This document shows, in pieces, positions 1,184 to 25,159 of a stretch of 43,698 bases of DNA; position 1 is the stretch's first letter; every line of letters begins with the position of its first letter. The stretch comes from Schmidtea nova (taxonomy: Eukaryota): NCBI GenBank assembly GCA_044892505.1, contig CM097882.1, positions 87,172,001 to 87,215,698 of the forward strand, in the 5' to 3' direction. The translations under genes and the position numbers were made by a program. A model generated the notes under the pieces. It was not told the origin of the DNA, did not search any database, and worked only from the letters and a program-made list of their open reading frames with translations.

Positions 1184-1272
1184 TCTGCAATTTACAAATT
1201 TACACTGGTTATACTATACGTTTATTGTTGTTGTCAATTTTTACACTTTATTTACAGGGTCGTTCATTCTGA

Positions 1273-2685
1273 CTACTCTAACCATCCTTTCGTTGACTTT
1301 GTGTTCATCACTGTTGTACTTGTTTTCTTTTCGATCTCCAACTCTACGTATAGGTTGTCCTCGTACAACATTTCCCACATTTTTTGGTGTGGTATGAATT
1401 TTGGTTCTCCCGTTGCTAATGAACATTCTGTGGTTGGTCTTTTGTAAGCCTCGTGCTTCCCATCGACTTTGAATATTCTCACAATCGTTTCTCTCGAGTT
1501 TTTCACTCTCATTATCGCCTTTGTCTCTAGTGGCCATTCCAATATGTCGTCGTAACCACCTTTACACAACGCAAAGAATAGTGACACATGCGTTTCCTTT
1601 CCTGATCCATCTCCATTTGGATAAATTCTCATCCGAACTTTGTATCCATTTTTCCACAGATAGAATGGTGGACTTGTTACCGACACTTGACTTCCTGCTT
1701 TTGCTGCTGCGAACTTTTCGTTGAAGTTCTTGATTTTCCATACATATGGTGCAACAGGTAAACTCTCGATATCCTCTGCATCTCGCACCCATATTTGATG
1801 TCGTACATTTACCTCCTTTACTAGCGTCTCTATGACTTTGATTTTCTCCATCATTTTTTCTCTGGTGAGCTCGAATTGCTCTCTCGTTTCCAGTAATAAC
1901 TCCGTCATTATCTTCTGAGATTCAATTTCTTTTCCCATTTTCTGTATGGTTTGTTCCATTCCGTTCAAATTTGCTGTTAACATCTCGGCGTGTTGTACCG
2001 TTTCCGTTTCCAAATGCTCTTTCATCTCTTTGCTCGTTTTCTTTACTACACATCCTTGTTTACTCCATACGCACTTTCTTGGTCTTGATTCGCATTGTTC
2101 CCAATGTTCTCTCAACATCACTTCTTCTCCGGTTCCGCAATTACTTGGACAAATTCCTCTGAATTTTCCACACACTTTCTCTTCTGCTACGTTGAGATGT
2201 TCTGTTTCGATTACTTCTCTCGTCTCTCTTTGTTCGCAGTATTGACACTCTATTATCTCTGCTTTGCACTCGTCCTTGTGATTTTTCGACTGCTTGATGG
2301 TTATCGTCTGTTGGCACTTTTCACATATCGCTTTCTTGTTTTCGCATTTCTCCAGATGTTGTCTTAACTCGATTATTTGTCCTTTCCATTCACATGGTTG
2401 GTTTATACACTCTGTTTTTATCTTCCAGATCTCCTTTTGTATTGCTTTGTCGGGTTTTGTCTCGTTGATCAGTAGTTTATCGTCACACTCTGGGCACTTT
2501 CTTGTCTCACTTTCACTGATTATTTGCAATATACACTTGGTGCACATCCTGCATCCACATTCCGTTTGCCTGGGTTTTAACAGTAGATTTTTACACTTTA
2601 CACACGTCACATTTACTCCCCATTGTCGATTTTCTCTTCTTAGAATCTCGATCGTTTGGTAATCTGCTTCGCTTTCTGCTCTCAT
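1273..2685 (-). CDS. TRAF: TNF receptor-associated factor (TRAF) homolog, 470 aa, intronless: RING, TRAF zinc fingers, coiled coil, MATH/TRAF-C
   Basis: RING CVKC..KPRQTECGCRMCTKC..CPEC; zinc fingers CINQPCEWKG..HLEKC and CVWSKQGC..HLE; MATH VWKIKNF..SPPFYLWKNGYKVRMRIYPNGDGSGKETHVSLFFALCKGGYDDILEWP. Confidence 0.95.
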   Translation of the reverse strand: MRAESEADYQTIEILRRENRQWGVNVTCVKCKNLLLKPRQTECGCRMCTKCILQIISESETRKCPECDDKLLINETKPDKAIQKEIWKIKTECINQPCEWKGQIIELRQHLEKCENKKAICEKCQQTITIKQSKNHKDECKAEIIECQYCEQRETREVIETEHLNVAEEKVCGKFRGICPSNCGTGEEVMLREHWEQCESRPRKCVWSKQGCVVKKTSKEMKEHLETETVQHAEMLTANLNGMEQTIQKMGKEIESQKIMTELLLETREQFELTREKMMEKIKVIETLVKEVNVRHQIWVRDAEDIESLPVAPYVWKIKNFNEKFAAAKAGSQVSVTSPPFYLWKNGYKVRMRIYPNGDGSGKETHVSLFFALCKGGYDDILEWPLETKAIMRVKNSRETIVRIFKVDGKHEAYKRPTTECSLATGEPKFIPHQKMWEMLYEDNLYVELEIEKKTSTTVMNTKSTKGWLE

Positions 2686-2775
2686 TCTACAACAATATTT
2701 ACATCAATTTCCCCATATTTTTGATTTTTTCTGGTTCTTTATTTACACGTATTTACACAATTTTCCGCTTATTCA

Positions 2776-3126
2776 TTATACATCCTCAGTTGAATCTGGC
2801 TCTGGATACACGTCTATCTCATTTACAATCCAGCTCGTCCAACTATCTGGTATCTCTTCCTCTTCATGTCTCGTTAATCGGTCAATTTCCTCTGCTTGCC
2901 AATTGTTTACTTCATTTAATGTTCGATTCTCGTTCTGTAATTCGTTTATCTGTATTTGTTGGATCTCGATTTTGTTCATTGCTTCGAAATTACAGTTATA
3001 ACTCTCGGTTAATAATTGCGTTTTGGCCGTCAACTGGCTCTGTAATTCGTTTATTGTTCTGGCTAGCAGGTCACATTGCACTTTCCATCTTGTCATCATT
3101 GACATCTCTGTGGTTTCTTGATTCAT
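2776..3126 (-). CDS. Small coiled-coil accessory protein (116 aa) with an acidic Trp-containing tail
   Basis: ATG ORF with heptads (LARTINELQSQLTAK; IQINELQNENRTL) and the element's codon bias; tail SWTSWIVNEIDVYPEPDSTEDV. Confidence 0.7.
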   Translation of the reverse strand: MNQETTEMSMMTRWKVQCDLLARTINELQSQLTAKTQLLTESYNCNFEAMNKIEIQQIQINELQNENRTLNEVNNWQAEEIDRLTRHEEEEIPDSWTSWIVNEIDVYPEPDSTEDV

Positions 3127-3249
3127 CGTTTTTCTAGATTATATACATCATTCTCTTTTTTCTGTTTTTATGTTTTATAATATTTATACCCATACGTATA
3201 CGGTTATGCATTGGTTTTTACAATACTATTTACACTCATATTCCGCCCT

Positions 3250-3708
3250 CTATTCAACTATCACTGGTTTTCCTTCGTACAGTTCCTCGTCCTCGATCTG
3301 TACCCATATTTCTTCGTGTTTTGACCGTCTTTTCAGCTCTTCTCGCACTGCTTTTGGTAGTTTAATGTTGTAATTCGTGACCTTTACGTCTGGCCATTTT
3401 ACTGCTATGGTCTTATTTCTCATGCCATATCTCCAACATACTATCATGATCGTTATCAGCGGTATACACGCTATGAATACTCCCATGCTGATTAATCCCA
3501 TTATTGTTTTCCCAATGCTCCTTCTTGGAGTCTCACTTTGGTTTATCATCACGCCATATTGACCTTTCCATTCTGCTTCCCATTGTTCATATTGTTGTTG
3601 TCTCCGTCTGACTTCTTCGATCACTTTCTCTGGTTCCCATTTTTCTTGTCGATTTGGTATTGTTTCTTCCTTCTCGTTTTGTTCTCTCTTCTGACTCAAT
3701 TCTCGGAA
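3250..3708 (-). CDS. TM helix plus cytoplasmic tail, in frame with pol/FN3 directly after the TAA at 3709-3711
   Basis: TAA TTC CGA GAA TTG.. is contiguous with the pol frame; hydrophobic IMGLISMGVFIACIPLITIMIVC followed by basic WRYGMRNK; tail contains EDEELYE. Confidence 0.75.
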   Translation of the reverse strand, partial: FRELSQKREQNEKEETIPNRQEKWEPEKVIEEVRRRQQQYEQWEAEWKGQYGVMINQSETPRRSIGKTIMGLISMGVFIACIPLITIMIVCWRYGMRNKTIAVKWPDVKVTNYNIKLPKAVREELKRRSKHEEIWVQIEDEELYEGKPVIVE

Positions 3709-6700
3709 TTATAACTTTCTGATTCTCCTCGTTATCGTCGTGTTCCTTGGCGTGTAATAGGTTTCGCACCTTTCTTGTGGATTTCCTTGTGTATCCACTT
3801 CTTCAATTGCACACACTTCGTATTCTGCGTTTGTTTTCAACTTCCTCATTTCTACCTCGATTATTTCTCTTTTGTCATTTGATGTCTTTTGACAATTTCG
3901 TGGAGACTTTCCCTCCTTGTTTGGTATTAATTTCCAACAGATTTCTAGGACCTTTTTATGGATCTTCCATATTATCAGAGTTGATGACTCTGGTTCGTTT
4001 TCTATTGTCGTCCTTTCCGTTGTTGCCGGTTGAATTCTCTGACTGTTGGTTGTCGTGGTCCTTCTTGACTTTCTTTTCCTCTGTCGACTTCTTCCCATTT
4101 CGATCGTTCTTGTTCCGTTAATTTGCTCTGGCGTCTTGTATAGTTTACATTCCAAGCTTCTTTGTATTATTTCTCTTATTCTTCGGATTACGCAAATTTC
4201 ATATGCTTGTCCGACTTCGAATCCATTTAGTTGAAACGGAATTCCTCGTTCTCTCGTTCTGCATTGCGGTAGTACGTGACTGGTCGCTACTCCGATGTAT
4301 TTTCTCCAACACATCCCAATTGTTCTTCGACCAATGTTTTTTATCTCCACGGTTACTACTTCATTCTTAATCGTTTCTTGGTCTTGTTTCCTTCTTTTTG
4401 GGAACTCAATTATCTCCTTTGCTTGGAACACTTTACACTCGCTTGTTCCTGGTCTGTTTCCGTTTGCTGCTTTTTCCATGAGACATAGTTCACATGTTTT
4501 CTCTGTTTCTATTTCAGTTATCTCTATTTCTTCATTTGTCTCTGCTTCCCGACTTTCTCTTGTCTCGCTGATTCCAATTACTTCATTGTTTCGTCCCCAA
4601 CATCTTCCATTCGTTGTTCGTTGATCTTGGATGTTTACTAACGTCATCACGCTGATATCTATGTCCTCCATGATTCTCTTAATGAGGATTAATATTAATG
4701 CTACACATATCAATTCTGGTTGGAATGTTAATTTTCCCGCTGGATTTTTGGTTATTCTTTCTTTCTCTGTTCGGTTTCTGATTCCTTCTTCTGCTTCGGT
4801 TTGATTCTTCCCTTTCTCTGATTCCACTTCTGATCTTCTCGTTGTCTCTTCGCTTCTTTTTCCAATCCATTTCTGTATTTTCAGCGCTTCTGTTGCTTTA
4901 TATAATTGACATGCAGTTACTTGAGGTGCTTTTGGTTCTCCTCTCTGCTTTATTGCGCATATTATGTATGACTTTTCTTTCTCTAATCCTTTGATTTGGA
5001 TGACGTCTCGCTTCAAGTCTGACAATATACACTTCAGCGTATCGTTTTTCCTCAGGTTTTCCTTCCAGCATATTCTTTCGTATACTTCGTTTCCTCTGAT
5101 TATTTCCAGCGTGACGTATTGTTTCTTGGCTTCTCCTTGTCCGATGATTGTTATCAATATCGCGATACACAACATTTCTGGTCTCAAAAGTAGACTTCCT
5201 GTTCGTTTTCCATAGTTCGCATGTTCGTCTTTTGTTCCACTGTTTTCTCGTTCTTCTGCTTCTCCTTTCTTGTCGTTTCTCGTTGGCTTCGGTTCTTCTT
5301 GTCTTTCTTTTTCATTATCCTCCGTTCTTTTGTTGTCATTGTCTTCGTTGTTCTCTTCGTTGTTGCTTTTGTCGTCGAAATCTCTGTAACCACCCCCTGG
5401 TCCTTTGAAAATGTCGTCCTCGACATTGATTTCTTCAATCAATCTTTCATACGCTTGAACCGCGAGTGTGCTAGACTCGAATTCACGTATCTCCATATCC
5501 TTGGATGGTTCTATGTTTTCTAGTCTATTTTGCTTGATTGTTTCTTTGGCCTTTGCCCACTCATTCACATATTTTCTGAACAAGTCTTTCCATCTTCCCG
5601 TTCGTTCCTGTTCCTTTGGGTTGTTAGTAAATTTCAAATCTCTTCTCTTCAAGAATTCTTCAACTATCTCTGGCTTTTTGTGTCTTAGCAACGCGCTTCT
5701 GATACACCAATTCTGATTTTGTTCCATATGGTCATTGATCTTGAATGCCGGTTCCTTGGTGATCGGATTCACCCATGTTAGTAATGCTCTTGTTTTTTCT
5801 ACGTCGTGTATCATTACTGTCAGACTGAAATTCTTTACGTTATTTGCCAGGTATTCGATATCATCTTGTTTCTTGATGGACTTTATGAACTTGATCATCT
5901 CGAAGTTGTTCCACTGTATTGCGATATCTATGATGGAATTATTCTTTCCATTTTTCCCTTCGATTTTTGCTCCTGCTTCGTATAATTCACTTAGCACTTT
6001 AAAGTTCGTCTTCTTTCTTGCTGCGATTATCATGATTGTATCTCCGTTATCATCAACCATATTCATATCTGCTTCGCACTTGACCATCGCTTTCGTTATT
6101 TCCAGCACTTCGTTTTCTTTCTTTCGACGTAATGCCCAGTGTATCGGCAATCTCCCATCCTTTGATAATAGGAATGCCACTGGCATTTGATTCTTGATCG
6201 TTTCTATGTCACTCTCGTTATAATCCCCTTGTGCATATCTGTGCACTCTCTCTGTAATTGCTCCTAGTATTCCCAACGAGCTTTTATTCTCCTTGAATTT
6301 CGATAATTTTTCCTGCGCTTTTGCTACGATTGCGTCTAATCTCTCTTGATAATCGGCTTTTGCATTGAACAACACTGCCTTGCTTCTTATTCGTGTTTGC
6401 ATCTGTTTCATCCGTTGGTCTTGATACACTGCTTGTCTGAAGAATTGTCCATACTTCAATGCTTCCACCAGCTCTTTATATCTCTTGCTTATTTCTTTGT
6501 GCTGCTTTTGGATGTCATAGAAATGTTCGAAGCTCATATCCGGATTCCATTGTTTATCACACCATTTCTTGATTAATCCGAATAGTTCCTTCTTTCGGTC
6601 ATCCAACTTGTATTCTCTTGGGTTTTCGCTAACCCGTAGCGTATCTCTCGCTATCAACACTGCAAGTGTTTTTGGATCGTATGTTACCTCTAGTAGATGT

Positions 6701-9700
6701 TTCAGTAACGCATTTTCTCCCCTTGTGAATACTTCATTACAATTTACGACCCACGAATCTCCTTCTGGTCGTTTCCATTTTAGCAATATTCTCCAGGTTT
6801 TACTGTTCTTTACCCCGATTGCTTGTTTCATGATCGATCCTCTAGTTAGTTCATCGATTTCCCACGTGGCGTTTTCTGTGATATACTTAAGTAATCGGTG
6901 ATTTGCTCTATCGATTGCATGATTCAAGAATGTTCGTCCTTCTTTATCTTTTGCCATCCAACTCGATCTGGTGTTTCCGAATAGCTCGACTATTTCCTCA
7001 TCTCTTCCATGAATCGTCATCATCATAAGTGGAGTGATTCCTTCCCAATTCACTTTGTCAATTTCTCCTCCACCTTCGAGTATCATCTCTACGATCTCTT
7101 TCACTTTTTCGTTCCCACTGTGCTTGACTGCATTGTGCAACGCTGTGTTACCGTCTTTGTCTTGTAGATTCAATGTTTGAGGGATTTCCTCTAGCAGCGT
7201 TCTTGTTATTGGATGTGCTGTTCTATCCTTCGCATACTCCATTACATTCTTTCGAACTTCTGTCAATATATTGAAATCGAACCACCATTTCCATTCTGGT
7301 ATAATTTCTCTGGTCCTCTTTGCCAGTTCTTTGATGTCTATTGCTTCTCTTCGGTTGTCTTCTAGACTTGTTTGCGGCTTTTGTTGTACTCGCAACATAC
7401 TGATTCTCGCCGTCTGTGATCTTGTCATTACCCGTTTTTCTGGTAATCGAGTTGCTGTCTTTGGTACTTTTCTGCATCGACATGTATTCACGTATATTGG
7501 TCTTACCAATGGATTGTTCACCAATCGTACTCGCACATTATTTTCATTTACTGTTGTTATTTCATATGGCCCCTTGCCTGGTCGTTGGAGTTTCTTGACC
7601 GTACCGGGTATTATCTCTGGTGTCTCAATTATCACCCAATCTCCAACTTTTAAATCATGTGCTTTCACATTCTTTTTCTGGTCATGTAGATCCTTGTAAC
7701 TTTCTTGATAGAACTTGATGTTTAGTTCCGCCGTTTTCCAGATTTCCTGCATTCTTTCTTTGAACTTTGTAACGTAATCGTCAAAATCCATGTACTGCGA
7801 TAATGGTGGTTGATATTCTAAATCGATCGGTAAGTTGCAATCTCTTCCGTACATCAGTTGAAATGGACTTAGCTTTGTTGTCGCATGTATTGACATTCTG
7901 TATGCCATTAAACACAAGTTGATATACTCGTCCCAGTCAGTCTGATGTTTGCTGACGTAATTTGACAACATGCGTATCAATGTTCCATTGAATCTTTCTG
8001 TTTGTCCGTTCGTTTGTGGATGGTATGGGGATGTTCGTAATTTCGCAATTCGGAAGTAATTCGTGACTTCGTCTAATATTTCACTCATAAAATTTGTTCC
8101 TTGATCCGTTAGGATTTTCTTTGGTGTTCCGTATCTGCAGCATATTTCTTCCACCAATATTCTTGCGACTGTTTTCGCCTTTTGATCCGGTATTGCGAAT
8201 GCTTCTGGGAACTTTGTTAGATAGTCCGTGACTACTAATATGTACTGATTTCCTTTTAAACTTTCCGGCAATGGTCCAACTACATCCATTGCTATCGTCG
8301 CCATAGGTTCTGCAGGTATTGGCATTGGTTTTAGTGGTGTTTTCCACTTCGTTCCGACGTTCTTTCTTGTCGCACAGGTTAAGCAGTTCTTTATCCATTC
8401 CTTCACATCATCTTCCATGGTTGGCCAAAAGTACTTTTGTCTCAGTCTCCCGATTGTCTTTTTCGCTGACATATGTCCGCCTAATTTTCCGTCATGATAT
8501 TGAGTCATGATTTCCTTTCGTCTATTCGCAGGTAAGCACATTAATCTTCGTTCTCCATCTTGTATCAATAACCATCCTTTTTCCATCACATATCTATGTT
8601 GATATTTCTGCATATGTTCGCGCAACGTTTGGTTCTTGCCGAATATTTCTATTTCCCTTTCTTTCAAATACTTGCTGATCAATCCCAACTCCTCATCTTC
8701 GAGTTGATCTTTCCTTAGTTCGCTGAAATCCAAATCTTCCGCTATTAATGCACATATTTTTAGAGCATTCAGGTTCACCAATTCTGGGAATGTAAATCTT
8801 GACATGCAATCCGCGTTTGCATTTGCTTTTCCTGCTTTAAACTTTATGAATGGCGAGTATTCCTGCAACTGCATCGCCCAACGCATCAATCTACTTGATG
8901 ATTCTTTGTGTTGACCTAACCATACCAATGGTTGATGATCCGTCGTGATATATATTTCATGACCCCACAATAGGTATTTGAAATGCTTGATTGCCAATAT
9001 TATCGCATAGGCTTCTCTTTCCGTGACTGAGTAATTCCTTTCATGTTTCCTGAATGTTCGACTGTAATATCCGATCACTCTCTCTTTGCCTTCTTCATCG
9101 AATTGGCCTAGTACTGCTCCTGCTGCGTATCCACTTGCATCTGTTGCCAACAGAAATGGCTTCTTGAAATCTGGATGGACCAATATTGGTGCTGTAATCA
9201 GCTTGTCTCGCAATGTCTCGAATGCTGCTTGTTGCTCTTCTCCCCATACAAACGACATATCTTGTCTTACCAATTCTTGCATTGGCTTTGATATTCCTGC
9301 ATAGTCCTTGATAAACTTTCGATAATATCCACACAATCCCAAAAATTTTTGTATTTGAGTCACTGTCTTTGGTGGTGGACATTCTTTGACTTTTTCGATA
9401 TTCCTTGGATCTGGTTCTTTTCCTTTTGCTGATACAATGTGACCTAAAAATGTCACTTTCTCTTTTGCCCAATCGCACTTTGACGGCTTTAATTTCAGTT
9501 TCCATTGCCTCAATTTCACGAACACATTTCTGATATCTTGTAAGTGGTCTTCAAATGTTGCGGAGTAGATCAATAGATCGTCGATGTACACCATGCATTG
9601 TTTTATGCCATGTGTTACGAAATTCATGCATCTCTGGAATGATGCTGGCGCGTTTGTTAACCCAAACGGCATTTTCTTGAATTGGTACAGATCTCGTCCG

Positions 9701-10875
9701 ATTGTAAATGCTGTCTTTTCTTTATCCTCGTCCTTCATTTTGATCTGCCAATATCCGCTTTTTAAATCCAGTGACGTGAAATAAGCTGCTCCTTGTAAAG
9801 TCAACAACATTTCGTTTATGTCTGGCAGTGGGTACGTGTCTCTTTTCGTAACTGCGTTCAACCGTCTGTAATCGATACAGAATCTCTGAGTTCCATCCTT
9901 CTTTTTCACCATCACCACTGGGAATTGCCAGGGTGAGCAACTAGGTTCGATGACCTCCGCATCTAACATCTTTTGTACCTCTTCTTCTGCCACTGCTTTT
10001 TGAGCTTCTGCCAATTTATATGGTCTTAATGCGATTGGCGTCTCGTCCGTCAATGGTATCGTATGTAATGTTACATCACATGTTCCCAAATCCAAATCTG
10101 ATGCTGCGAATATATCTTGATACTCCATCAACAGTTTCTGTAACTGTTCTTTTTGTTGTTCGTCTAACAACACACTGTCGATTTTCCATGGTAATTCGTC
10201 TTTGCTTTTCTCATTCTTGCCTGGTATTTCGATTTCGGACATGGGTGTCAATTTGCCCAATCTCTCATTCTCGTAAATTATCTTGTCCTCTTCGTCAAAA
10301 TTCACCAGATTAATTGGTATCTCACCTTCTTGGTTTATCGTAACCAATTCTCTTGCCATTGGTAATTCCTTCTTCGCTTCGAACTTCTTACTTGGTTCGA
10401 ATATCATATCTCCCTTTATTGTTGAATCGATCTTGACATAACACATCATTTCATGTCTCGCTGGCACTACTATTTGTTCCGCACTTGCCACTTTAACTTT
10501 CATTCTGCAGATTTTTCCTGTCCTATCTTTTAGCTTCATTGCTCCTAGATCAATTACGATTTCCTTGAACAGGTCTGGCATTAGGTCAGTTCCAATAATA
10601 CATGGTACACTCAGCGATGGTATTACAGCGATGTACGTGTTGATTTCTGCACCTCGATGCTTAATTTTTACAAACCATCTTCCGGCTACTTCTACTGTCT
10701 CCTGACTGCACGCGATTACATGTACATTCGTCTTCTCGATTTCCCCTTGGTTTTTCTCTGGTATATAATTAATGTCGATCGCCGAAATATTCGCGCCTGT
10801 ATCGATCTTAGCTTCAATTTCTCTTCCGTTTATTTCTACGGTTGTTGTTAAGATTGGTCCCATGTTTGTGGACAT
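3709..10875 (-). CDS. pol: Pol polyprotein, 2388 aa: aspartic protease, dUTPase-like linker, RT, RNase H, integrase (HHCC, DDE, GPY/F), then ankyrin and FN3-like extensions
   Basis: AKIDTGANIS (PR); LDLKSGYWQI, MPFGLTNAP, YIDDLLI (RT); LATDAS, EREAYAII, TDHQPL, NANADCMSR (RH); YHDGKLGGH..CLTC, AMDVVGP, TDQG, NGQTERFN, GKGPYEI (IN). Confidence 0.98.
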   Translation of the reverse strand: MSTNMGPILTTTVEINGREIEAKIDTGANISAIDINYIPEKNQGEIEKTNVHVIACSQETVEVAGRWFVKIKHRGAEINTYIAVIPSLSVPCIIGTDLMPDLFKEIVIDLGAMKLKDRTGKICRMKVKVASAEQIVVPARHEMMCYVKIDSTIKGDMIFEPSKKFEAKKELPMARELVTINQEGEIPINLVNFDEEDKIIYENERLGKLTPMSEIEIPGKNEKSKDELPWKIDSVLLDEQQKEQLQKLLMEYQDIFAASDLDLGTCDVTLHTIPLTDETPIALRPYKLAEAQKAVAEEEVQKMLDAEVIEPSCSPWQFPVVMVKKKDGTQRFCIDYRRLNAVTKRDTYPLPDINEMLLTLQGAAYFTSLDLKSGYWQIKMKDEDKEKTAFTIGRDLYQFKKMPFGLTNAPASFQRCMNFVTHGIKQCMVYIDDLLIYSATFEDHLQDIRNVFVKLRQWKLKLKPSKCDWAKEKVTFLGHIVSAKGKEPDPRNIEKVKECPPPKTVTQIQKFLGLCGYYRKFIKDYAGISKPMQELVRQDMSFVWGEEQQAAFETLRDKLITAPILVHPDFKKPFLLATDASGYAAGAVLGQFDEEGKERVIGYYSRTFRKHERNYSVTEREAYAIILAIKHFKYLLWGHEIYITTDHQPLVWLGQHKESSSRLMRWAMQLQEYSPFIKFKAGKANANADCMSRFTFPELVNLNALKICALIAEDLDFSELRKDQLEDEELGLISKYLKEREIEIFGKNQTLREHMQKYQHRYVMEKGWLLIQDGERRLMCLPANRRKEIMTQYHDGKLGGHMSAKKTIGRLRQKYFWPTMEDDVKEWIKNCLTCATRKNVGTKWKTPLKPMPIPAEPMATIAMDVVGPLPESLKGNQYILVVTDYLTKFPEAFAIPDQKAKTVARILVEEICCRYGTPKKILTDQGTNFMSEILDEVTNYFRIAKLRTSPYHPQTNGQTERFNGTLIRMLSNYVSKHQTDWDEYINLCLMAYRMSIHATTKLSPFQLMYGRDCNLPIDLEYQPPLSQYMDFDDYVTKFKERMQEIWKTAELNIKFYQESYKDLHDQKKNVKAHDLKVGDWVIIETPEIIPGTVKKLQRPGKGPYEITTVNENNVRVRLVNNPLVRPIYVNTCRCRKVPKTATRLPEKRVMTRSQTARISMLRVQQKPQTSLEDNRREAIDIKELAKRTREIIPEWKWWFDFNILTEVRKNVMEYAKDRTAHPITRTLLEEIPQTLNLQDKDGNTALHNAVKHSGNEKVKEIVEMILEGGGEIDKVNWEGITPLMMMTIHGRDEEIVELFGNTRSSWMAKDKEGRTFLNHAIDRANHRLLKYITENATWEIDELTRGSIMKQAIGVKNSKTWRILLKWKRPEGDSWVVNCNEVFTRGENALLKHLLEVTYDPKTLAVLIARDTLRVSENPREYKLDDRKKELFGLIKKWCDKQWNPDMSFEHFYDIQKQHKEISKRYKELVEALKYGQFFRQAVYQDQRMKQMQTRIRSKAVLFNAKADYQERLDAIVAKAQEKLSKFKENKSSLGILGAITERVHRYAQGDYNESDIETIKNQMPVAFLLSKDGRLPIHWALRRKKENEVLEITKAMVKCEADMNMVDDNGDTIMIIAARKKTNFKVLSELYEAGAKIEGKNGKNNSIIDIAIQWNNFEMIKFIKSIKKQDDIEYLANNVKNFSLTVMIHDVEKTRALLTWVNPITKEPAFKINDHMEQNQNWCIRSALLRHKKPEIVEEFLKRRDLKFTNNPKEQERTGRWKDLFRKYVNEWAKAKETIKQNRLENIEPSKDMEIREFESSTLAVQAYERLIEEINVEDDIFKGPGGGYRDFDDKSNNEENNEDNDNKRTEDNEKERQEEPKPTRNDKKGEAEERENSGTKDEHANYGKRTGSLLLRPEMLCIAILITIIGQGEAKKQYVTLEIIRGNEVYERICWKENLRKNDTLKCILSDLKRDVIQIKGLEKEKSYIICAIKQRGEPKAPQVTACQLYKATEALKIQKWIGKRSEETTRRSEVESEKGKNQTEAEEGIRNRTEKERITKNPAGKLTFQPELICVALILILIKRIMEDIDISVMTLVNIQDQRTTNGRCWGRNNEVIGISETRESREAETNEEIEITEIETEKTCELCLMEKAANGNRPGTSECKVFQAKEIIEFPKRRKQDQETIKNEVVTVEIKNIGRRTIGMCWRKYIGVATSHVLPQCRTRERGIPFQLNGFEVGQAYEICVIRRIREIIQRSLECKLYKTPEQINGTRTIEMGRSRQRKRKSRRTTTTNSQRIQPATTERTTIENEPESSTLIIWKIHKKVLEICWKLIPNKEGKSPRNCQKTSNDKREIIEVEMRKLKTNAEYEVCAIEEVDTQGNPQERCETYYTPRNTTITRRIRKL
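3738..5075 (-). other. Four Cys-containing FN3-like repeats in the pol-frame C-terminus
   Basis: Repeating CW..(L/F)xxxxxY/CxxC..CxxY/FxT pattern: GLEKEKSYIICAI..CQLYKAT; EIETEKTCELCL..CKVFQAK; GFEVGQAYEICVI..CKLYKTP; KLKTNAEYEVCAI..CETYYTP. Signal-like segments precede repeats 1 and 2 (PEMLCIAILITIIGQGEA; PELICVALILILI). Confidence 0.65.
5870..7165 (-). other. Two ankyrin-repeat clusters (about 6890-7165 and 5870-6165) in the pol-frame C-terminus
   Basis: DKDGNTALHNAV, NWEGITPLMMM, DKEGRTFLNHAI; SKDGRLPIHWAL, DDNGDTIMIIAA, NGKNNSIIDIAI. Confidence 0.9.
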
Positions 10876-10914
10876 AACCGCTATCGTGTGCGTGTCTTCT
10901 AACGAGTCTACGCT

Positions 10915-14001: not shown

Positions 14002-14016
14002 TTCTTGAGTAAACTA

Positions 14017-14235
14017 TGGTTGTTCTTGCTCGTCTTCGGAATCGTTTACCATTTCTATGACTACCTCCTGTTCCACTCCTTGATCGTCGATTTCTGCTGG
14101 TGACGTTACTGGCATCTCTATTATTCTGTCGAAAATATTCGCCGTTGGTTTTTGAGTTAACTTCGTTAATTCTTCTATCGCTTCGTCACTGTCTGTTAAT
14201 ATTTCGTCTACGTCATACGCTTCTGGCGGTGTTCT
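14017..14235 (-). other. 73-codon open acidic linker, in frame between ORF2 and the Bcl-2/env ORF, bounded by two TAG codons
   Basis: Manual translation RTPPEAYDVDEILTDSDE...DSEDEQEQP; TAG at 14236-14238 and 14014-14016, then FTQE and ATG 14001, all in one frame. Confidence 0.75.
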
Positions 14236-16474
14236 CTATCTCGTTTTGATTGGTGTTGTCCTTGCTTGTCCCGAACTTGTTCCTGGGATCATTGCTGACT
14301 TCATCGGACTTGGTGTACTCATGCTTCCTTTCGGTTTCTTTTCCTCTTTAAACTTCAGTGGTTGACCCACTATCTGTGCCACTGTTAGCGTATTCATTAG
14401 ATCCAATTGCACTGGTGTCAGCCAGATTTCCAACTTGTTATCCAACGATCGTCCTTGATGTTGCAGGTGGAATGGTAGTTCGTACATCAGTTTCTCTTTA
14501 ACACTTTTCACTTTTTCTGTTAGCATCACCCAAAACTCTTCTTTTCTCTGATTTGGATACATTATCCTCAAATGTATTTTCTGTGGCGTTTCCTCCGCAA
14601 ATTCTTTGTTTCTCCACTTTTTTATTACATTGTCTAGTTGCTCTGGACACCACTCATTAACTCTCTTGTATTCTGCTATCGCTTTAGCTGCTTTTCTCAA
14701 GTTCGTCATGTCTTCTCCATTTGCGATTATAAAATCTGCTAAGCCTTTTATTGTTTGTCTTTTTCCCCGAGTATTTCCTCTCAACAGTTCTATTAATTCA
14801 TCCGTTTTCTGTTTCTCCAATTCTGCCCATATTACTGCAGTTTCTGGTCCGTCTAAGTCCGTTGGTAATAACCTCCTTGTTACCATACATATCCGTTTCG
14901 TATTCGATTCATATCTGTCTTCTCCTTCTGGATCTTCTTCATACACGCCTCTTTTCACTTTCCAACATTTCTCTTTGTTATCCCATTGCTTCTCTACTGG
15001 CGTCAATCGTCGTCTGTTAAGATCCAATTCTCCCAATATTGTCTCCCATTCTGGCTTCATCTGCCAGTTCCGATAGATTTCTACTATCTGCCTCAACTTG
15101 CGCATAACGTCCTCTTGTCGTTTCTTTCTCCTTTCTTCATCTCTTGGTGTTGCTCTTGGCACATCATCCATTCTGATGACGTGTATTGTCTGGGAATTGT
15201 CCCATATGCCGATTTTATACGCTCGTCTTTCGTCACGTTCATTCAGTAGATGTTCTTTGTATTTTATCGCAATGTCATCCTCGAATTCATCTTCCCGTTC
15301 TCGTTGTAATATCGTCTCATTGATGACATCTACTATTTCTCCCACTTTACTATCTGGTATTACCTCAATTTGTCTTGTCTCTTCGTTCGGTAATCTCACA
15401 GTAATCATCAGATCTGATACCTCTCCTCGTCTAAACATTTCTTTTCCCATCTTTGCGATTAGCTTGTCCGTTTTGAAATTTGAATGTCTCGTTTGACTTG
15501 TATCTCGTATGTTCTCGATACACTGTTTCAAATTCTCATACTCGCTTTTTGTCAATTCCTTTCGATGTTTCTTGATTTGTTGGATGATCTGTTCTATCAT
15601 CGTATTCAAATTCTCTGCCAAGATTCGTTCCTTTGCCTCTATCAACTGAGGTTTTATTCTCATCTCATAACACGTATTCGCTTCTTTGACGATTCCTTGT
15701 AAGTTCTCTTCCTTCTTGGTGTTGCATATTGATAACGTTGTTATTTCTCCTGGCCATATGCCTGTGTCTATCATATGCGTTCCTTTTTTCACTAATCCGT
15801 TTTCCGAATATATGAACTTGTCTTTGTACGAGCTTCCCAATCTGTCCTCAACCCATCTGTAGATTCCATCTGTCATTGGGTTCTTTATCCAGATTCTCGG
15901 TGAACACTCGTTTATCCATATCTGTATTATGTATTCGTTGAGTGGTTCTTTCAATAACTTCTCTATGAACTCTTGTATTACTCTCACTTCTCTTTCTTGT
16001 AACCACTCTTTATACTTCATCTGCCATATTGCTCGTATGAACTTTCGGTATCGTTTCTTGTCGATAAACTCCTCGTTATGGATTACTTCCAACACGTTAT
16101 CCATCAGCTTCTGAATTTCGTCTTCCTTTACCGACATCGTTTCTATCGTCTCGACTACTTCCATCTTTTTATCCTCGTTTTCCGGTTCCTTTAGCATGTC
16201 TCCTGCCAGACTGCTAACTTCGCTGTCGTCTTCTTCATCTGACAACTCTTGTCTTGGGTGTCTCAGCATCCCAATATGCGCGGTTGGTCTCACTTCGTTT
16301 TTGCTAACTTCCTGCGTTAGTTCATTCTCGTTTCCCGTTATTTCAGCTTTTCCCATTCTTTTCTCCAACTCATCTATTTCTTCAAACCGTCTTCGTCTTA
16401 TTTTCCCTTTAAATATCCGACTGATCCGAGTTTGATGTTTCACTGGTGGTGGGAGTTTCTCCGGTTCCACCTCT
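14236..16474 (-). CDS. ORF2 (gag extension) with two ubiquitin-like domains, about 15170-15410 and 14380-14580
   Basis: MITVRLPNEETRQIEVIPDSKVGEIVDVI and IHLRIMYPNQRKEEFWVMLTEKVKSVKEKL..LQHQGRSLDN resemble the ubiquitin beta-grasp pattern ([35 protein letters not shown]). Joins the gag frame if the 14-nt duplication at 16461-16488 is removed. Confidence 0.65.
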
Positions 16475-18729
16475 CCGGTTCCACCTCTCTGATGATCATC
16501 ACGTTCATTTTCGTCTCCGTTACTCCCATATCTTCCCATATATCAGTCATCTTCAACTTTACTTCCGGTAAATCCTCTGTTTGTAGGAATGCTTCTCTGG
16601 GTAGTTTCGTCACTCCCGGCATCATCTCATTTACTTTATTGAACAATCTTCCCACTTCTTCTTTTACATTGTATTTGAATCGCCACACGTGATCATTCAG
16701 CATGATCACCAACATTCCTCTTTGTTTGATTCTCACTTCTTCTTCTTGATTCACTTCTTTTTCTGTTTCTTTTTCTATTTCTGTTTCTTTTTCTACTTCT
16801 TCAACTTTTTGATTCTGCTCTGCGGTTTCTACTTCCTGATTCATTTCTTCTTGTTTCTGCTCTTCGTTTCTTTTCTCTTTAACTTCTAACTCGTCTGACT
16901 CATCTTGCTGCTTCTCTTCCATCATTGCTCGCATCATGTTGATCCTTGGGTTTCCCTTTTTTAACAGTTGTAATCGTTGTTGCCTGACTTGTTCTTCTTC
17001 TCGTCGTACTCTGGCCCATTCTTGATTATGTTTCTGTTGGCTTTCTCTATTTTCTCTTTCAGCCTCAGCTTCTATTAACTGGATCATGTTTATCTTTGGT
17101 TGAGCAGCTTGCTGGCTTCCCTTTGCCATGCTTTCGATTATCTCGTGTAATCTGGATACCTCCTGTCTCAACTTGGCCTCTTTCATACTGGCTTCGTTTG
17201 CACTGCTATTTGGGTTGTTCCGTTGTTGACCCTGATTCCCATAACTTGATCGATTTCCGTAATTCTGTCTATTTCCACTGTTTGACCAACTTCTCTGTTG
17301 ATTACACTCTCTTGACATGTGTCCCGTTTTCCCACATGTGTAACACATTTTCCCGTAACATCGATTCTCTGAGTGACCTTTTTGTCCACACAGTTTACAG
17401 GCTACATTCTGAAAACACTCTTGTTGCCAATGTCCGTTTTTCCCACACGTCTGACATTGCCTATTCTGCCTGTCATTGTAACTATTTCCTCCACTCGTGT
17501 TCACTGTGATATATCCATTATTTTTCCTCGCTGGCGGTTCTTTGAACAATCTCTGCGAATGGGGAATACTTTGATTCATGTTTCTTTTTCCTTGTTCTTC
17601 ATCTTCTGTCGTTTTTCCCATTACCGCCGTAATTCTCATGTCGTTCATTGCCATATGCAATTCGAATAGGTTGGCTGCTTCTAACGCTTCATCTACTGTT
17701 TTACATCCTTTGCATCCCACTTGTGCTCTGATGTCAGGTCTCCTGAGACCTCGTACGAATAACGCTGTCATCAATTCTTCGTCTACTGGGCTTCCTCTAT
17801 TGAATGCCAGTTTCGCCAACTTTCTTAATTCGCTTGCGTATACCGCATTTGACTCATTTCTCCTCTGTTTTCTTGCTGAGAACTCATCGAACGCTTCTTT
17901 CAACACTTTATTTATCCCAAACGTCTGTTGGAAGAACTCCTTGATTGCTTCCCACGTTCTGGGTGGATTACTTCCCGATCTCTTTTCAATATACAGATCC
18001 AATGCGCTATCTTTCAAGTATAGCGGGATTCGATTTGCCAACGTTTCTGCACTTTATCCGCATATATCCACGAATATGCCAAATTCCTTTAGAAACGTGT
18101 CCAATCTACTGGCGTCTCCATCGAATGGTTCGCCCTTGAATTTTTCTCTCAGATCCTCTCTGTGTTCACTCATCCCGATTCCACTGTCTTGGAATACTGT
18201 ACTAGTTTTCTTTGCTTCTATTTCACCACTTGTTTCTGGATTCAACTCTTCTTCTTCAATACTCTCTGTTTCGTTATCTCTTGATTCGCTTCTTGTTCTG
18301 TTTTCACTAACTAGTTCACAGTCTATCGTTTCTACTTCGTTTCGTACTTCTGGATCCTCTGGGGTTTCTTCTTGGTTCTCTTTATTACTCGAATTATCGC
18401 TGATCTCTGCTGGTTTGTTCTTCAGTTGCGCTGCTTTATTTCTTGGCCTTGTCTTCTTCGCTGTTTTTCTTTCTTCTTCTGTTAGGATTGGTATTATACC
18501 TGTCCTTGTTTTGCGTTCCGCAATCTTGTCTATTACTCAACTTCTTATATTCTCAACTGATTTTCTACTTCGCTTTTGCTTTGCTTCTTCTTCGATTTGT
18601 TTCCTTTGACTGCTCTGACTGCTAGATTGCCTGGAATTGCTTGATTGATTTGTTTCCTTAAAACAAATAATCACTTACACGATACGTCCCCGTTATCGTG
18701 TTTCTCGTCCCTCTCACGGGTGTAGTCAT
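16440..18729 (-). pseudogene. gag: gag (capsid plus three CCHC knuckles), disrupted in this copy by TGA 18537-18539, TAA 18054-18056 and a 14-nt duplication
   Basis: GEPFDGDASRLDTFLKEF..ICG*SAE..IPLYLKDSALDLY..TWEAIKEFFQQTF..RKQRRNES..YASELRKLA; CQTCGKNGHWQQEC, CKLCGQKGHSENRC, CYTCGKTGHMSREC. The frame is continuous across both stops up to 18656. Confidence 0.9.
18657..18678 (-). promoter_or_regulatory. Consensus splice donor GTAAGT (18678) and in-frame acceptor (18657): putative 22-nt intron or major splice donor
   Basis: Minus strand ATG(18729)-MTTPVRGTRNTITGTYR|GTAAGTGATTATTTGTTTTAAG|GAA ACA (ETNQ..) joins in phase 0 with gag. Confidence 0.5.
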
Positions 18730-20663: not shown

Positions 20664-20671
20664 TTTTTATA
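20664..20671 (-). promoter_or_regulatory. Candidate TATA box (TATAAAAA) for the gag-direction transcript
   Basis: Minus strand GGCGCGCGCAGAAAAACTATAAAAATAGG, upstream of the leader repeats; position plausible only. Confidence 0.3.
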
Positions 20672-20979: not shown

Positions 20980-21438
20980 TTACAAGTACACTGTTACTTT
21001 CTCGGATACGGGAAAATTGCACATAGGACATCGTTCATTTATTTTACAGTCATTACAGAATCGAAAATGCCCACACGGCAGCAACATTATCTGTATCTTA
21101 TTTATTTCACAGATGTAACACGTCAGATACTGTCTCGTATATTCGGTTGTCGTTCTTATCCACTCATCGTGTTTTGTTGCAATCTGTCGTTCTAGCCTGT
21201 GGCATTCGATATTCATTTCAGGGTTGTTTAATCTTTCTCTGTACCATTTGTATCTCGTTGCTGTATCAACTGTATTCTTATTCTCGCTTATGCTCATCAT
21301 CATTTCGGCTCTTTCTGTGTTGTTTGTCGGTTCGTGATATCTTCCTACCTCGAGTCGTTTTAACTTTCTCATTATTATCTCCATTGTCTCGTTGTTTGTT
21401 TCAAAAAACGTTTGCATTTCTTTTATTTTGTTCTCCAT
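20980..21438 (-). CDS. C-terminal IAP/Mdm2-type C3HC4 RING protein (152 aa, no BIR); putative E3 ligase
   Basis: CYICEINKIQIMLLPCGHFRFCNDCKINERCPMCNFPVSEKVTVYL at the extreme C-terminus; same A-rich codon bias as the element. Confidence 0.85.
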   Translation of the reverse strand: MENKIKEMQTFFETNNETMEIIMRKLKRLEVGRYHEPTNNTERAEMMMSISENKNTVDTATRYKWYRERLNNPEMNIECHRLERQIATKHDEWIRTTTEYTRQYLTCYICEINKIQIMLLPCGHFRFCNDCKINERCPMCNFPVSEKVTVYL

Positions 21439-22370
21439 CCCCTGAATGAATTACCATTAATTTCTGTCGATTTTTATTTATTATCTATTATTTTTATTCT
21501 GTGGTAGCCCTACTGTTCGCTTTCTGTTGTTCTGTTTCGCGTCACTACTTGCGTATCCCCCCGTGTTCTTGAATGTCGCCCCGACATGATCATTGTTAGT
21601 TGCTCACACTCATACCATTTTCATACACACTTTTCAGCATACTTTTACTTTACGTCATGCATATTTTTCATCACTTTTCATACTGTTATTCCACATACTA
21701 TTCATCATACTTCATTCATCCTCATATTTTCACATTCGTACTTTCATTCCCATGCATACTTTTATCATGCTCATCAATCTCATTATTTTACACTCATACT
21801 TTTATTTATTATTTTTCAACCCGATTCATTCTTGCTTCAGGACCCACAAACCCTCTGTTATCATTTACTTTACTTTTCCTCGCTAAATTCAATTTCATCC
21901 CGGTTCAGGCGCTCTAACACTGTCCGCAGATATCGAATTCACTTTTCCCACAAAAATCGATTTAATCCCGGCTGAGCCCCCAAATTTATGCTGGTGTGTT
22001 GGTTTGATGGACAACTGAGATCATTAAGATTTTATATGTTAGGGTGATCTCGCCAACATAAAAACATTCCCCCGCTGACACCCATGATGTATCCCTAACT
22101 ACTCATCATGTTGGTGCTGTGTCAACGTTGTGAAATGACAAGGCAGGTGAGCAACCTTGCGGCTACTATTCCCTTGTTTATTCACGGGTCCACCACTACC
22201 GATAGAAGGTGTTTGTGGATTTCTTTCGGTCCCACTTATGCTCTTTCCTTTTGTCCTAGGGTGATTTAATTTTTAGCGCATCTGCAGCTTTAAATGAACC
22301 AGGTTTTCCTTATGTTTAATTCTCATACATACTTCAAACACCCAAGACAAGTCATTCATCCAATATACAT

Positions 22371-22934
22371 TTATTTATGACTTAACAACACTGAAGGTCT
22401 AATCACATTTAGGAGTTCTTGTTCAGAGAGCCCACTGAGCAGATCCATCTCTATGCCCAGGCGATCAGCATATGCCCGTCGCTCTCTCCGATTTTTCGCT
22501 CCAAGGCGATTCCTTCGCTTTGTCCGTTTTGAGCCTTCTGGATTTCTCGTTGTCGACTCGATGGTCGTGGTTGCGACTTCATCGGTTTCTGTTTGGGTAC
22601 TCGTAGTTACCGATACCGAATCCGCCCATCGGTTAAAGGTACTCGCCCTGATCACTGGGCGTAATTGCTCTGAGATGAATTCTTGAGTCGACACTCTCAA
22701 GTAATTAGATAGCTCCAATTTCAAGGCTGCGACCTCTCGAGCCTGATCGTTGGCTACTTGTTCGGCTCTGTATCTGGCTTGCAGGATGGCTTTAACTCTT
22801 TCGGGATTAAACAATGTTATCTTGATCCTTTGATGTTCGTCGTTCAACTGTCGTAAACGACTTTCCAGGACTCGGGACCGTGCCTTAGGTTCCTTTGCCT
22901 CTTGCTTGTAATTTCGTTTTGGATTCTCGTCCAT
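22371..22934 (-). CDS. Unknown accessory protein: coiled coil, Thr-rich linker, Arg-rich motif, Leu-rich tail
   Basis: Open frame; probable start at ATG 22934 after the acceptor CTAAT..TTTCCCAG|AC; KRTKRRNRLGAKNRRERR. Confidence 0.6.
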   Translation of the reverse strand: MDENPKRNYKQEAKEPKARSRVLESRLRQLNDEHQRIKITLFNPERVKAILQARYRAEQVANDQAREVAALKLELSNYLRVSTQEFISEQLRPVIRASTFNRWADSVSVTTSTQTETDEVATTTIESTTRNPEGSKRTKRRNRLGAKNRRERRAYADRLGIEMDLLSGLSEQELLNVIRPSVLLSHK

Positions 22935-23164
22935 GTCTGGGAAATGTATCATTAATTAGGGTATGCATGATTTGTTTGGTTTCTTAGTCACCATTTTATT
23001 GTCAAACAACTACACTCTATCCTCACTCATTCACATGCATTCAAAAACCAAAACAAAACCCTTTTGAATGGATACATATATTTTAATTTACAACAGATGT
23101 TCTTTCTTTGGAGAGGTCACTCTCGCGATCAATTGTATGGTCGTAACTTCTGATCGGCAGGGTT

Positions 23165-23764
23165 CTAGTCTCGGCGAATTCCTGTTTCATGATATAGTTC
23201 GGGCGCTGGATTCCAACTCAGTTTGTTTTGATAGATGAACACCTCCCAGAGGCGAAGATCTTTGGGCTCGGGGTGTTGATCCACTGAGACGCTTCCTGGA
23301 GCGTTTGGGTAGACGAAGACTTCCCCAGTGTCACTACACCGAGGCCTGTCTAGCAGCAAATACCCGAGTTGGCAGAATGCCTGCCCAGTCATCATTCCGG
23401 TACTCAGTAACCAGCGGGGTTGCTGTACTTCATCTACGAATTGGTAGAACCATCTATCGGATCCTCCTTTGGTAGAACTCGGGGAAAGCGTCCAATCGAC
23501 ATCGCCTTCCCACCTCAACTGTAGCTGGAATGCACAGGCGGGAATACTGGCCGCTGTACTCATATGGGTCCTTGTCCATCGACGCAGGTGTCTACGTGCG
23601 GAGTTGAAAATTTGGCGTGGAGCCTCCTTCTCTCCTTTGATTTCGGAAGTTATTTTTGGTAGGATGACGGAGCGGATGCGCCGTTTCCTCCGGAGAATAT
23701 ACTCCTCTAATTTGACGGGTAGGGGGTCTACCGGCTCCTTCATAGAATGTTCCGTTTTTATCAT
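23165..23764 (-). CDS. Unknown protein (199 aa), visibly higher GC than the rest of the element
   Basis: ATG ORF preceded by CATTTCTTTCAG|AGTGCC; no family recognised. Confidence 0.5.
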   Translation of the reverse strand: MIKTEHSMKEPVDPLPVKLEEYILRRKRRIRSVILPKITSEIKGEKEAPRQIFNSARRHLRRWTRTHMSTAASIPACAFQLQLRWEGDVDWTLSPSSTKGGSDRWFYQFVDEVQQPRWLLSTGMMTGQAFCQLGYLLLDRPRCSDTGEVFVYPNAPGSVSVDQHPEPKDLRLWEVFIYQNKLSWNPAPELYHETGIRRD

Positions 23765-24871
23765 GGCACTCTGAAAGAAATGTCCAGGTTAACCGACAGA
23801 GTCTATCATTGATCATCGATATTTATATCGATCAACCTACTTGGCTTATTCGCTCTATATGCCGTAGGCCTCAGTAGCTCATACACAGATTATTAGACCA
23901 GTGGTCACGATATTCATGTAGGTTGTAGTTGATGTTTTGCTTTGGTGAGTTAATTCACTCCGCAATTTCGGCGGTTTTAACTACACTCATTTCACATTGG
24001 TATTTACAATAATATATTTTATTCAATTTCTCATCGATCGTTTTCATTCATCCAACACAGTTCGTTTACCGAACATCATCAGCAACTATCAAGGTTCATG
24101 TCACGGTGGGGAAGATTAGTAATCCCTTAGTCAAACCGCTTTGTCAAGAAACGTATTAAATTTCTTTTCCTACTATCGGGATTGACTTTTCATACCCTCC
24201 GAGGGTTATATGCATAGGTTAGAAACATATTCGATTTACTACTACTTCTTGATGCTAGTGTCCTTTGTCCGCGACGTTACGCTTTACATATCCCTACTCT
24301 CGTCGACTTTCAATGTATCAGCAATCTTTGGAGGTACACACCCTCATCAAGATACCCCCATACATATATACTCCATGCGAAATTAACTTTACCTTGATTT
24401 GATTTATGATCCTTCACGGTTACTCGATACCCTATGTGCACTTATTCCCCTTCCGCTTACCAAGTATTTAGTAAACCTATGGTCCCGCCGCATCAGCACC
24501 TCACATAAACATGTGTTGCACTGAGAGGCCCAAGAATCCGTCAGGCTGTTAGGCCTCCGGAAAACCTTATTGATTTTAGCATGATTATGAGTTATGAGGG
24601 TTTAAATTCTCTAAGAACAAAACAAAATTCAATAATACCTTTATTTCGTTCCAATTGGTTTCACACAGTTACAAGTTGTAAGTCGTGACTTAAAGTTCAC
24701 ACTCGGTAAAAATGACATTACCAATACTGATTTACCTTCAGTATTTATACTAAACCGGTGTTGTTGGTTAGCCAATCAGCATCGAGTATGTGTGTCTGTT
24801 TGTTCATTATTTTGTGTTGCCGGCTTTTTGGTGCCTAACTCAACTCAATGATTTGTTTGTTTAATCATGCG

Positions 24872-25119: not shown

Positions 25120-25159
25120 ATGCTGCTCGATTTGGCTGGCCCAACAAGAATATATAAAA

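Follow-up and report, generated by a model that had tools for sequence, protein, structure and literature searches.

The Burro-like element and its open reading frames

The analysed window comprises 43,698 nt of Schmidtea nova DNA (contig CM097882.1, positions 87,172,001 to 87,215,698) and carries on its minus strand most of a long terminal repeat (LTR) retrotransposon of 29,102 bp with an internal region of 22.8 kb (Table 1). Its 3' LTR is located just beyond the window (L001 8202-5045) and shares 99.46% identity with the 5' LTR, with 17 substitutions. TG..CA LTR ends, a 4-bp target duplication (TTCT), a PBS, a polypurine tract and the domain order protease-RT-RNase H-integrase were found, as in Ty3/gypsy elements. 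The PBS-like stretch is presumably akin to a tRNA-Pro site. The mononegavirus-like env (PF24664) is in frame in a gag-env-pol order; the polyprotein is split into several frames in this copy, and in L056, a copy with an internal deletion, gag, env and protease form a single 3,333-codon frame. Judged from its sequence, the element belongs to Ty3/gypsy and resembles the giant Burro retrotransposons.

Table 1. Features of the element, in window coordinates unless a locus is named
Feature	Position	Strand	Remarks
5' LTR	21989..25146	-	3,158 bp, TG...CA ends
TATA-like box	24741..24750	-	retained across LTR types
Putative common leader exon	24639..24730	-	~75-90 nt; 3' end is AATAAA (24645-24640) plus G
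5' splice donor GT	24637..24638	-	AG/GTAATT in most copies; ~110 nt past TATA box
Acceptor A (AG)	23771..23772	-	used in junction copies L017, L051/L052
ORF A	23165..23764	-	199 aa (~211 in most copies); within LTR; Arg-rich N-terminus; ATTAAA 23087-23082
Acceptor B (AG)	22937..22938	-	putative; YAG conserved in copies
ORF B	22371..22934	-	187 aa; within LTR; Arg/Lys-rich C-terminal part; AATAAA over stop (22375-22370)
PBS-like stretch	21965..21982	-	TGG start; 6 nt past LTR
Acceptor C (AG)	21442..21443	-	putative; YAG conserved in copies; past PBS
ORF C	20980..21438	-	152 aa; C3HC4 RING; AATAAA 20975-20970
Acceptor-like AG before gag	18657..18658	-	found in a distant family too; no ATG in 483 nt up to first gag Met (18173)
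Polyprotein region	3250..18173	-	Gag with CCHC knuckles, Monjiviricetes-type fusion glycoprotein, protease, RT, RNase H, integrase, ankyrin repeats
Acceptor D (AG)	3134..3135	-	putative; YAG conserved in copies
ORF D	2776..3126	-	116 aa; coiled-coil-like; TGTA and AATAAA 2743-2738
Acceptor E (AG)	2687..2688	-	putative; YAG conserved in copies
ORF E	1273..2685	-	470 aa; TRAF-like: RING, zinc fingers, MATH; AATAAA 1252-1247, 1226-1221
Acceptor F (AG)	1185..1186	-	putative; YAG conserved in copies
ORF F	13..1183	-	coiled-coil-like; ~390-400 codons in other copies, two pieces here
ORF H (seventh)	L001 8939-8487		150 aa; just outside window

Burro and GYPSM1 are giant gypsy-like retrotransposons of dugesiid planarians, with an internal region of up to 25 kb and a total of ~30 kb (PMC6431247). 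The present element, slightly below the '>30 kb' quoted for Burro, resembles them in its size (~29 kb), its CCHC Gag, its mononegavirus-like env placed in frame after gag and before pol, its ankyrin repeats, its TRAF/MATH, RING and coiled-coil accessory functions and its hundreds of copies (PMC6431247). That review assigns MATH/TRAF either to the polyprotein or to an accessory ORF upstream; here it is a separate ORF past pol. Ankyrin repeats, MATH/TRAF and RING accessory domains were all detected in the element. A Pfam scan of 14 ORFs revealed no BIR domain, ORF C being RING only, and the element was therefore not filed as Burro1, the subfamily whose B-IAP combines BIR and RING. Sequence searches for a BCL2-like domain before env gave no match; a low-confidence all-helical model of the candidate (pLDDT 47) retrieved Bcl-xL at rank 3 (E 0.55) amid bromodomain hits.

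All seven accessory ORFs are under purifying selection as judged by comparison of coding sequences (median dN/dS 0.06-0.23). The ORFs starting at 23764 and 22934 (A and B) are situated within the LTR, and the 99-aa ORF ahead of the 123-nt spacer is the polyprotein tail; both points correct the sequence-only reading of this DNA. A 171-aa ORF at 528 was considered as a separate gene with its own acceptor and rejected, being the tail of the ORF at 1183 in other copies. For ORF A, neither a homologue search nor Pfam gave a match, Atlas matches were of low recognition only, and a low-confidence fold model (pLDDT 56) had no viral structure match; no known family was found for ORF B. Solo LTRs, many and scattered over the genome, retain both LTR genes.

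Acceptor sites and spacers

The sequence-only reading had pointed to a 3' splice acceptor just before the ATG of six ORFs on the minus strand. All six contexts were recovered at their coordinates, with a YAG 1-7 nt upstream of the ATG in 6/6. AG alone means little, as many ATGs of this strand, which is rich in purines, have a bare AG ahead of them: it occurs 0-7 nt upstream of 291/480 control ATGs in coding regions and 64/129 in non-coding ones. YAG is less frequent at control ATGs (112/480 coding, 22/129 non-coding and 7/60 in LTR and cassette spacers, i.e. 12-23%). When 6 or more pyrimidines were also required among the preceding 12 nt, YAG was present at 6/6 named starts versus 26/480 and 5/129 controls, this threshold having been chosen after the six sites had been seen. 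Shuffling of the 60 nt upstream gave P of 0.16-0.24 per site and a product of 1.5e-5 for seven sites. ORF H, outside the window, served as a blind test and showed a CAG 2 nt before its ATG with only 4 pyrimidines; pyrimidine tracts are weak at D, E, F and H.

Lack of conservation of the AGs among copies had been named as an observation that would speak against the proposal. In the fetched copies, a YAG 0-8 nt before the aligned start was kept nearly throughout: 37/38 for A, 38/40 for B, 10/10 for C, 32/32 for D, 30/33 for E, 30/31 for F and 32/34 for H. The YAG of H is missing in several divergent copies. Acceptors are retained down to families with ~50% protein identity, with an AG-to-ATG offset that ranges from 0 to 8 nt, as would be expected after a non-coding leader.

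The spacers of 123, 90 and 89 nt described from the window, with AATAAA in the latter two, were likewise confirmed. In the 3' cassette (D, E, F, H) spacers measure 73-123 nt, with a poly(A) motif 34-60 nt ahead of the next AG, and follow a common order: stop, TGTA-AATAAA-type motif, A-rich stretch, branch-like motif, YAG and ATG. Poly(A)-like signals are found behind most ORFs; the pol-D and F-H spacers of this copy are devoid of canonical AATAAA.

A putative leader in the LTR and its junction copies

The TATA-like box of the LTR is followed by initiator-like motifs at ~24730 and ~24715, from which a putative start site was deduced. The donor GT at 24638 adjoins the AATAAA of the LTR and was recognised only after a junction had been seen; it forms the left end of a precise 868-nt loss in two genomic copies. 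A GT donor motif occurs in 29/35 LTR loci; the other six are the 2 junction copies, 1 with a donor seen by eye and 3 without a TATA match.

In these two copies (L017 and L051/L052) the leader is joined exactly to the 23771 acceptor. L017 has the junction in its 3' LTR; the element at C2:30.99-31.02 Mb, which has a CTTT target duplication, carries it in both LTRs, and these differ at 2/2,285 nt. Comparison of leader (64% alike), exon A and U3 did not pair the two copies as each other's nearest relatives, and their leaders also occur in copies that are unspliced; by these comparisons the two apparently arose independently. For an LTR deletion, the rough chance of a matching right end is ~0.001, to be multiplied by 0.05 for a matching left end. 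The junction copies are, as read from genomic DNA, fossils of cis-spliced RNA, and they establish cis-splicing from the LTR leader for acceptor A; the other acceptors would be used in the same manner.

Searches for junction copies covered A, B, C, E and F. The A pattern, taken as a positive control, found L017 and one chance match and missed the C2 element because of its altered start codon, so that such searches miss mutated copies. Leader- or SL-type junctions in genomic DNA had 0 matches at B (one chance match in another B search), 0 at C, 0 at E (one chance match and L063 in a relaxed search) and 9 at F, none within the element; a second donor type joined to A had 0 matches. A blank is expected for C-H since such RNAs are without PBS, whereas B copies could have turned up. 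Copy L063 is missing the D-E spacer, and its deletion is one base away from an exact GT..AG intron; being ambiguous, it was not counted as a splice fossil. The deletions of L005, L010 and L052 (internal) do not coincide with splice sites, nor does a 4.6-kb one common to L055 and L056. In DNA-like contigs of four runs, none of the 15 joints listed (with 132 more beyond the listing) was on an acceptor, which is a blank and not evidence.

That the AGs other than A are unspliced and belong to a purine-rich start context, with long RNAs yielding the ORF products through reinitiation or leaky scanning, is very improbable. The frequency of bare AG (50-61% of controls) and the want of junctions seen at B-H accord with it; against it, YAG and a T-rich tract are retained where spacer flanks are unalignable and the offset shifts, and the sole testable site is in use.

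In MMTV sag and HIV nef, the coding sequence within the LTR belongs to U3 and precedes the start site. A and B, on the contrary, follow the start site and precede the PBS; a solo LTR therefore combines promoter, donor, genes and poly(A) signals.

Proposed expression of the element

The Burro-like element is probably expressed as one transcription unit, whose LTR leader is cis-spliced to alternative acceptors and whose RNA is cleaved at the poly(A) signal of each ORF. RNA would start at the TATA promoter ~0.4 kb into the LTR, and a ~75-90-nt leader would end at the donor directly behind the LTR AATAAA. The host spliceosome would join this leader in cis to one acceptor, namely A or B in the LTR, C past the PBS, or D, E, F or H past pol, with the gag acceptor probably as one more target. 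Cleavage at the poly(A) signal behind the chosen ORF would give a monocistronic mRNA in which the ATG of that ORF is the first or near-first start codon, and unspliced read-through would provide the genome. U1 at the donor probably also masks the adjoining 5' LTR poly(A) site. Counting against this cis model, introns to D-F would measure 21.5-23.5 kb and pass over several acceptors.

The sequence-only reading had offered two mechanisms, spliced-leader (SL) operons or splicing from a common donor as in complex retroviruses. The latter was supported by a conserved LTR donor, with an exact junction at 23771 only, while the former gained no positive evidence and no SL-type junction at B, C, E or F. 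The complex-retrovirus likeness holds for the joining of a common donor to acceptor A; it departs in the poly(A)-like signals behind most ORFs, which argue against all mRNAs ending at the 3' LTR, a trait of those viruses. In the adenovirus major late unit, a single promoter and a shared non-coding leader serve many alternative acceptors and several poly(A) sites; the unit belongs to an unrelated DNA virus and the analogy is functional only.

It is rather unlikely that the system is mixed, with LTR genes cis-spliced and the 3' cassette (D, E, F, H) forming a flatworm-type operon whose SL trans-splicing is coupled to 3' cleavage. Spacers of 73-123 nt that include a poly(A) motif are in line with candidate operons of flatworms (<=300 bp, median of 99 bp in S. 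mansoni), which share the short same-strand spacers and the acceptor just ahead of the ATG, and flatworm cis- and trans-splicing often use the same acceptors (PMC12582326). The SL option stands for the 3' cassette since SL RNAs and trans-splicing have been reported for Schmidtea species (PMC10899757). Moreover, RNA of C. elegans Cer1, also a gypsy element, is both cis- and SL1-trans-spliced (PMC3315495). Nevertheless, the sole junction found here, unlike in SL operons or Cer1, uses the element's own LTR donor, a working cis donor is present upstream of the cassette, and the DNA searches at E and F gave no SL-type junction, although this is weak evidence. In addition, the flatworm SL ends in AUG (PMC12582326), and the offsets are 1 nt at E and F, 2 nt at H and variable (3-8 nt) at D; as they vary among families, the terminal AUG would often be out of frame.

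An internal promoter of the cassette, in foamy-virus style, with D expressed first and E-H via a local donor or read-through, is unlikely. The motif GTATAAATA, identical to the LTR TATA core, lies ~55 nt before the ATG of D with TATAAAA beside it, and L063 could be read as a local splicing product. Against this, L063 is ambiguous and the GTATAAATA core is altered in distant families (L041-L043, L045, L047) in which the YAG of D is retained. The TATAAA before D could, we presume, equally serve as a variant poly(A) signal of the polyprotein mRNA, which counts against the internal promoter. Foamy viruses do use one; here the donor directly follows the hexamer rather than preceding it, and the element differs from them by being Ty3/gypsy, with LTR genes downstream of the start site and poly(A)-like signals behind ORFs (PMC3694450).

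Meaning for Burro elements

Burro elements are already known; no description of this expression layout was found in the Burro literature covered, with Grohme et al. 2018 and Lee et al. 2026 outside its scope, and the review is silent on accessory-ORF expression and on genes inside the LTR (PMC6431247). Burro elements carry apoptosis- and ubiquitin-related genes, and Burro1 has been reported to support planarian stem cells and regeneration (cited in PMC13465017).

A broader reading, possible and put forward tentatively, is that of an adenovirus-late-like unit with the leader cis-spliced to ~8 alternative terminal exons and a separate poly(A) site for each of them. The transcribed part of the LTR would contain two conserved genes that belong to no known family, solo LTRs would be self-contained two-gene cassettes, and the Arg-rich A and B would perhaps act as early regulators; it is speculation that these are Rev- or Tas-like and switch the unit to unspliced genomic RNA. 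The mapped donor, acceptors and poly(A) sites provide exact junctions that are testable in RNA. Such a layout would explain how accessory proteins are made without making a transposing genome, and solo LTRs, usually regarded as remnants without coding function, may in this lineage be units that encode protein.

Element and family

Most of a single minus-strand LTR retrotransposon lies in the window, and a search of the same genome found a second copy of window 25146-23000 directly to the left, in the neighbouring stretch (L001). Across both, the element measures 29,102 bp, with LTRs of 3,158 bp each (99.46% identity, TG..CA ends), a TTCT target duplication, a polypurine tract and a PBS-like stretch that may resemble a tRNA-Pro site. 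Pfam domains of the polyprotein are Gag, CCHC knuckles, a Monjiviricetes-type fusion glycoprotein, protease, RT, RNase H, integrase and ankyrin repeats. It is split over several frames in the window copy, and gag-env-protease forms a single 3,333-codon frame in one internally deleted copy. Env is preceded by a helical domain (13321-13848) that may show some likeness to Bcl-2 BH motifs. The 5' untranslated internal region carries arrays of 19-, 36- and 71-nt repeats (19746-20304) and a 41-nt repeat in five copies at 84-97 nt spacing (19046-19465), possible packaging or export elements.

With 667-2,428 candidate places in first genome searches, the family must number at least in the hundreds of copies. 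Two of them, L055 and L056, have lost RT, RNase H and integrase through one shared in-frame 4.6-kb deletion (window equivalent 10210-5566) and represent a non-autonomous derivative lineage. This architecture matches what PMC6431247 describes for the Burro elements of dugesiid planarians, and on that basis alone the host would be a planarian of this group.

Outside the element lie a 24/49-nt minisatellite (29872-30584), an inverted repeat with (AT)n borders (37600-38160) and inverted-repeat pairs (32460-33470) flanking a 135-aa ORF (32863-33270), possibly what is left of a DNA transposon.

Features of the LTR and of the small ORFs
Feature	Position	Strand	Remark
5' LTR	25146-21989	minus	3,158 bp
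TATA box	24750-24741	minus	LTR sequence
Initiator-like motifs	~24730 and ~24715	minus	LTR sequence
AATAAA	24645-24640	minus	GT at 24638 directly after
ORF A	start 23764	minus	AG at 23771
ORF B	start 22934	minus	AG at 22937
ORF C	start 21438	minus	AG at 21442
ORF D	start 3126	minus	AG at 3134
ORF E	start 2685	minus	AG at 2687
ORF F	start 1183	minus	AG at 1185
ORF H	L001 8939-8487	minus	beyond the window

Small ORFs and acceptor-like sites

All seven small ORFs (A-F and H) are under purifying selection, with median pairwise dN/dS of 0.06-0.23 (9-35 pairs, dS at least 0.1). By Pfam, C is a RING and E a TRAF-like protein; A and B matched no recognised family, A in homologue, Pfam and predicted-fold comparisons and B in Pfam. 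H (150 aa) has a coiled coil flanked by hydrophobic N- and C-terminal stretches and a weak GP41 match (E 0.003, below cut-off). Three corrections to the sequence-only reading follow: A and B both lie within the LTR; the 99-aa ORF at 3549 is the tail of the polyprotein; and the 171-aa ORF at 528 belongs to F in other copies. In otherwise close copies, dS reaches 1.4-2.7 for A and B vs ~0.2-0.3 for internal genes (window 21989-25146, LTRs of L003-L040): the LTR types are old, the element body that carries them is homogenised, and the haplotypes of leader, U3 and A form a mosaic.

The six acceptor contexts described earlier are all present, as are the three spacer lengths. An AG alone, 0-7 nt ahead of an ATG, is uninformative here (291/480 and 64/129 control ATGs), while the stricter YAG form precedes 6/6 named starts vs 112/480 and 22/129 controls; demanding at least six upstream pyrimidines, a threshold chosen post hoc, lowers the controls to 26/480 and 5/129. 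H has a CAG 2 nt before its ATG and a weaker pyrimidine tract. Spacers run in the order stop, TGTA with an AATAAA-type motif, A-rich stretch, branch-like motif, YAG and ATG. AATAAA overlaps the stop of B in most copies, and the canonical hexamer is absent from the pol-D and F-H spacers in the window copy; variant poly(A) hexamers are known.

Loss of the AGs among copies had been named as grounds for doubt, and YAG is mostly kept: at the aligned start in A 37/38, B 38/40, C 10/10, D 32/32, E 30/33, F 30/31 and H 32/34 fetched copies, counting one LTR per element and only matches that reach residue 1. Internal copies are mostly 94-97% alike, so they add little by themselves, and the divergent ones are the informative cases. 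The YAG and T-rich tract before A persist in LTR types with unalignable upstream DNA, and families at ~50% protein identity keep YAG before A to F with varying AG-to-ATG offset, H's being less well kept. A further acceptor-like site, 483 ATG-free bases upstream of the first gag Met, recurs in one distant family. Some 120-150 open Met-less codons precede the first gag ATG in 9/9 close copies (window 18173-18536); in a distant family there are 176. This stretch may be an N-terminal extension that starts at a non-AUG codon.

Copies carrying a donor-to-A junction

A donor motif matched in 29/35 LTR loci (19 AG|GTAATT, 5 AA|GTATGG, 5 others), the motif list having been drawn up after the alignment was viewed. 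The other six comprise one donor recognised by eye, two junction copies and three loci without a TATA match, two of which have an aligned GT at the donor place.

The 3' LTR of L017, a 5'-truncated element represented here by that LTR, has precisely lost the DNA from the donor GT (24638) through the AG at 23771, the very acceptor proposed earlier for A. Querying the genome with this junction returned another element, at C2:30.99-31.02 Mb, that has a CTTT target duplication and carries the junction in each of its LTRs; these differ at 2/2,285 nt. In retroviruses, both LTRs copy this 5' part from the RNA 5' end, and reverse transcription of a genomic RNA whose 5' part had been spliced would leave just such a pattern. 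The junction shows A to lie downstream of the putative start site; whether A and B are R or U5 depends on the position of the 3' end. The two leaders (the predicted exon between start site and donor) are 64% alike, and neither exon A nor U3 groups the copies as closest kin, so two separate events are probable; a single event followed by recombination is possible. The chance of one deletion matching both ends is roughly 5e-5 per deletion, and none of the other deletions observed falls at splice sites.

Expression of the element

We consider it probable that one LTR promoter yields a single leader-bearing transcript, whose leader would be joined in cis to alternative terminal exons, each ending at its own poly(A) site, while unspliced read-through RNA would supply the genome. 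Searching the genome by pattern turned up no leader- or SL-type junction at B, C, E or F. The blank is expected at C-H, since their spliced RNAs would be without the PBS; at B it speaks mildly against use. In four contig runs that behave like DNA, none of the 15 joints listed fell on an acceptor. L063 is without the D-E spacer, one base off a precise intron, and is ambiguous. Splicing confined to A, the one acceptor with junction copies, is very unlikely; YAG conservation extends to the other ORFs. Resolution of the 3' cassette by SL trans-splicing (PMC12582326, PMC10899757, PMC3315495) is unlikely. An internal promoter ahead of D appears improbable; the TATA core of the LTR recurs ~55 nt upstream of D (3189-3181) but is not kept in several distant families. 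Adenovirus offers a comparison for the shared-leader layout, and MMTV and HIV for genes inside an LTR.

Among 12 unpaired LTRs fetched from the closest matches of the own-genome search, 4-bp target duplications mark 11 as solo LTRs; of all 12, A is open in 12/12, B in 10/12, and the donor motif is present in 11/12. They contain all that expression of A and B would require.

No description of this layout was found in the Burro literature on splicing and accessory ORFs, nor in passages of PMC11410931, and 'splic' occurs nowhere in PMC8532177; spliced Burro RNAs may already be described by Grohme et al. 2018 and Lee et al. 2026, as cited in PMC6431247 and PMC13465017. The element adds a member to a known kind, and its expression layout is, as far as these searches reached, a new variation.
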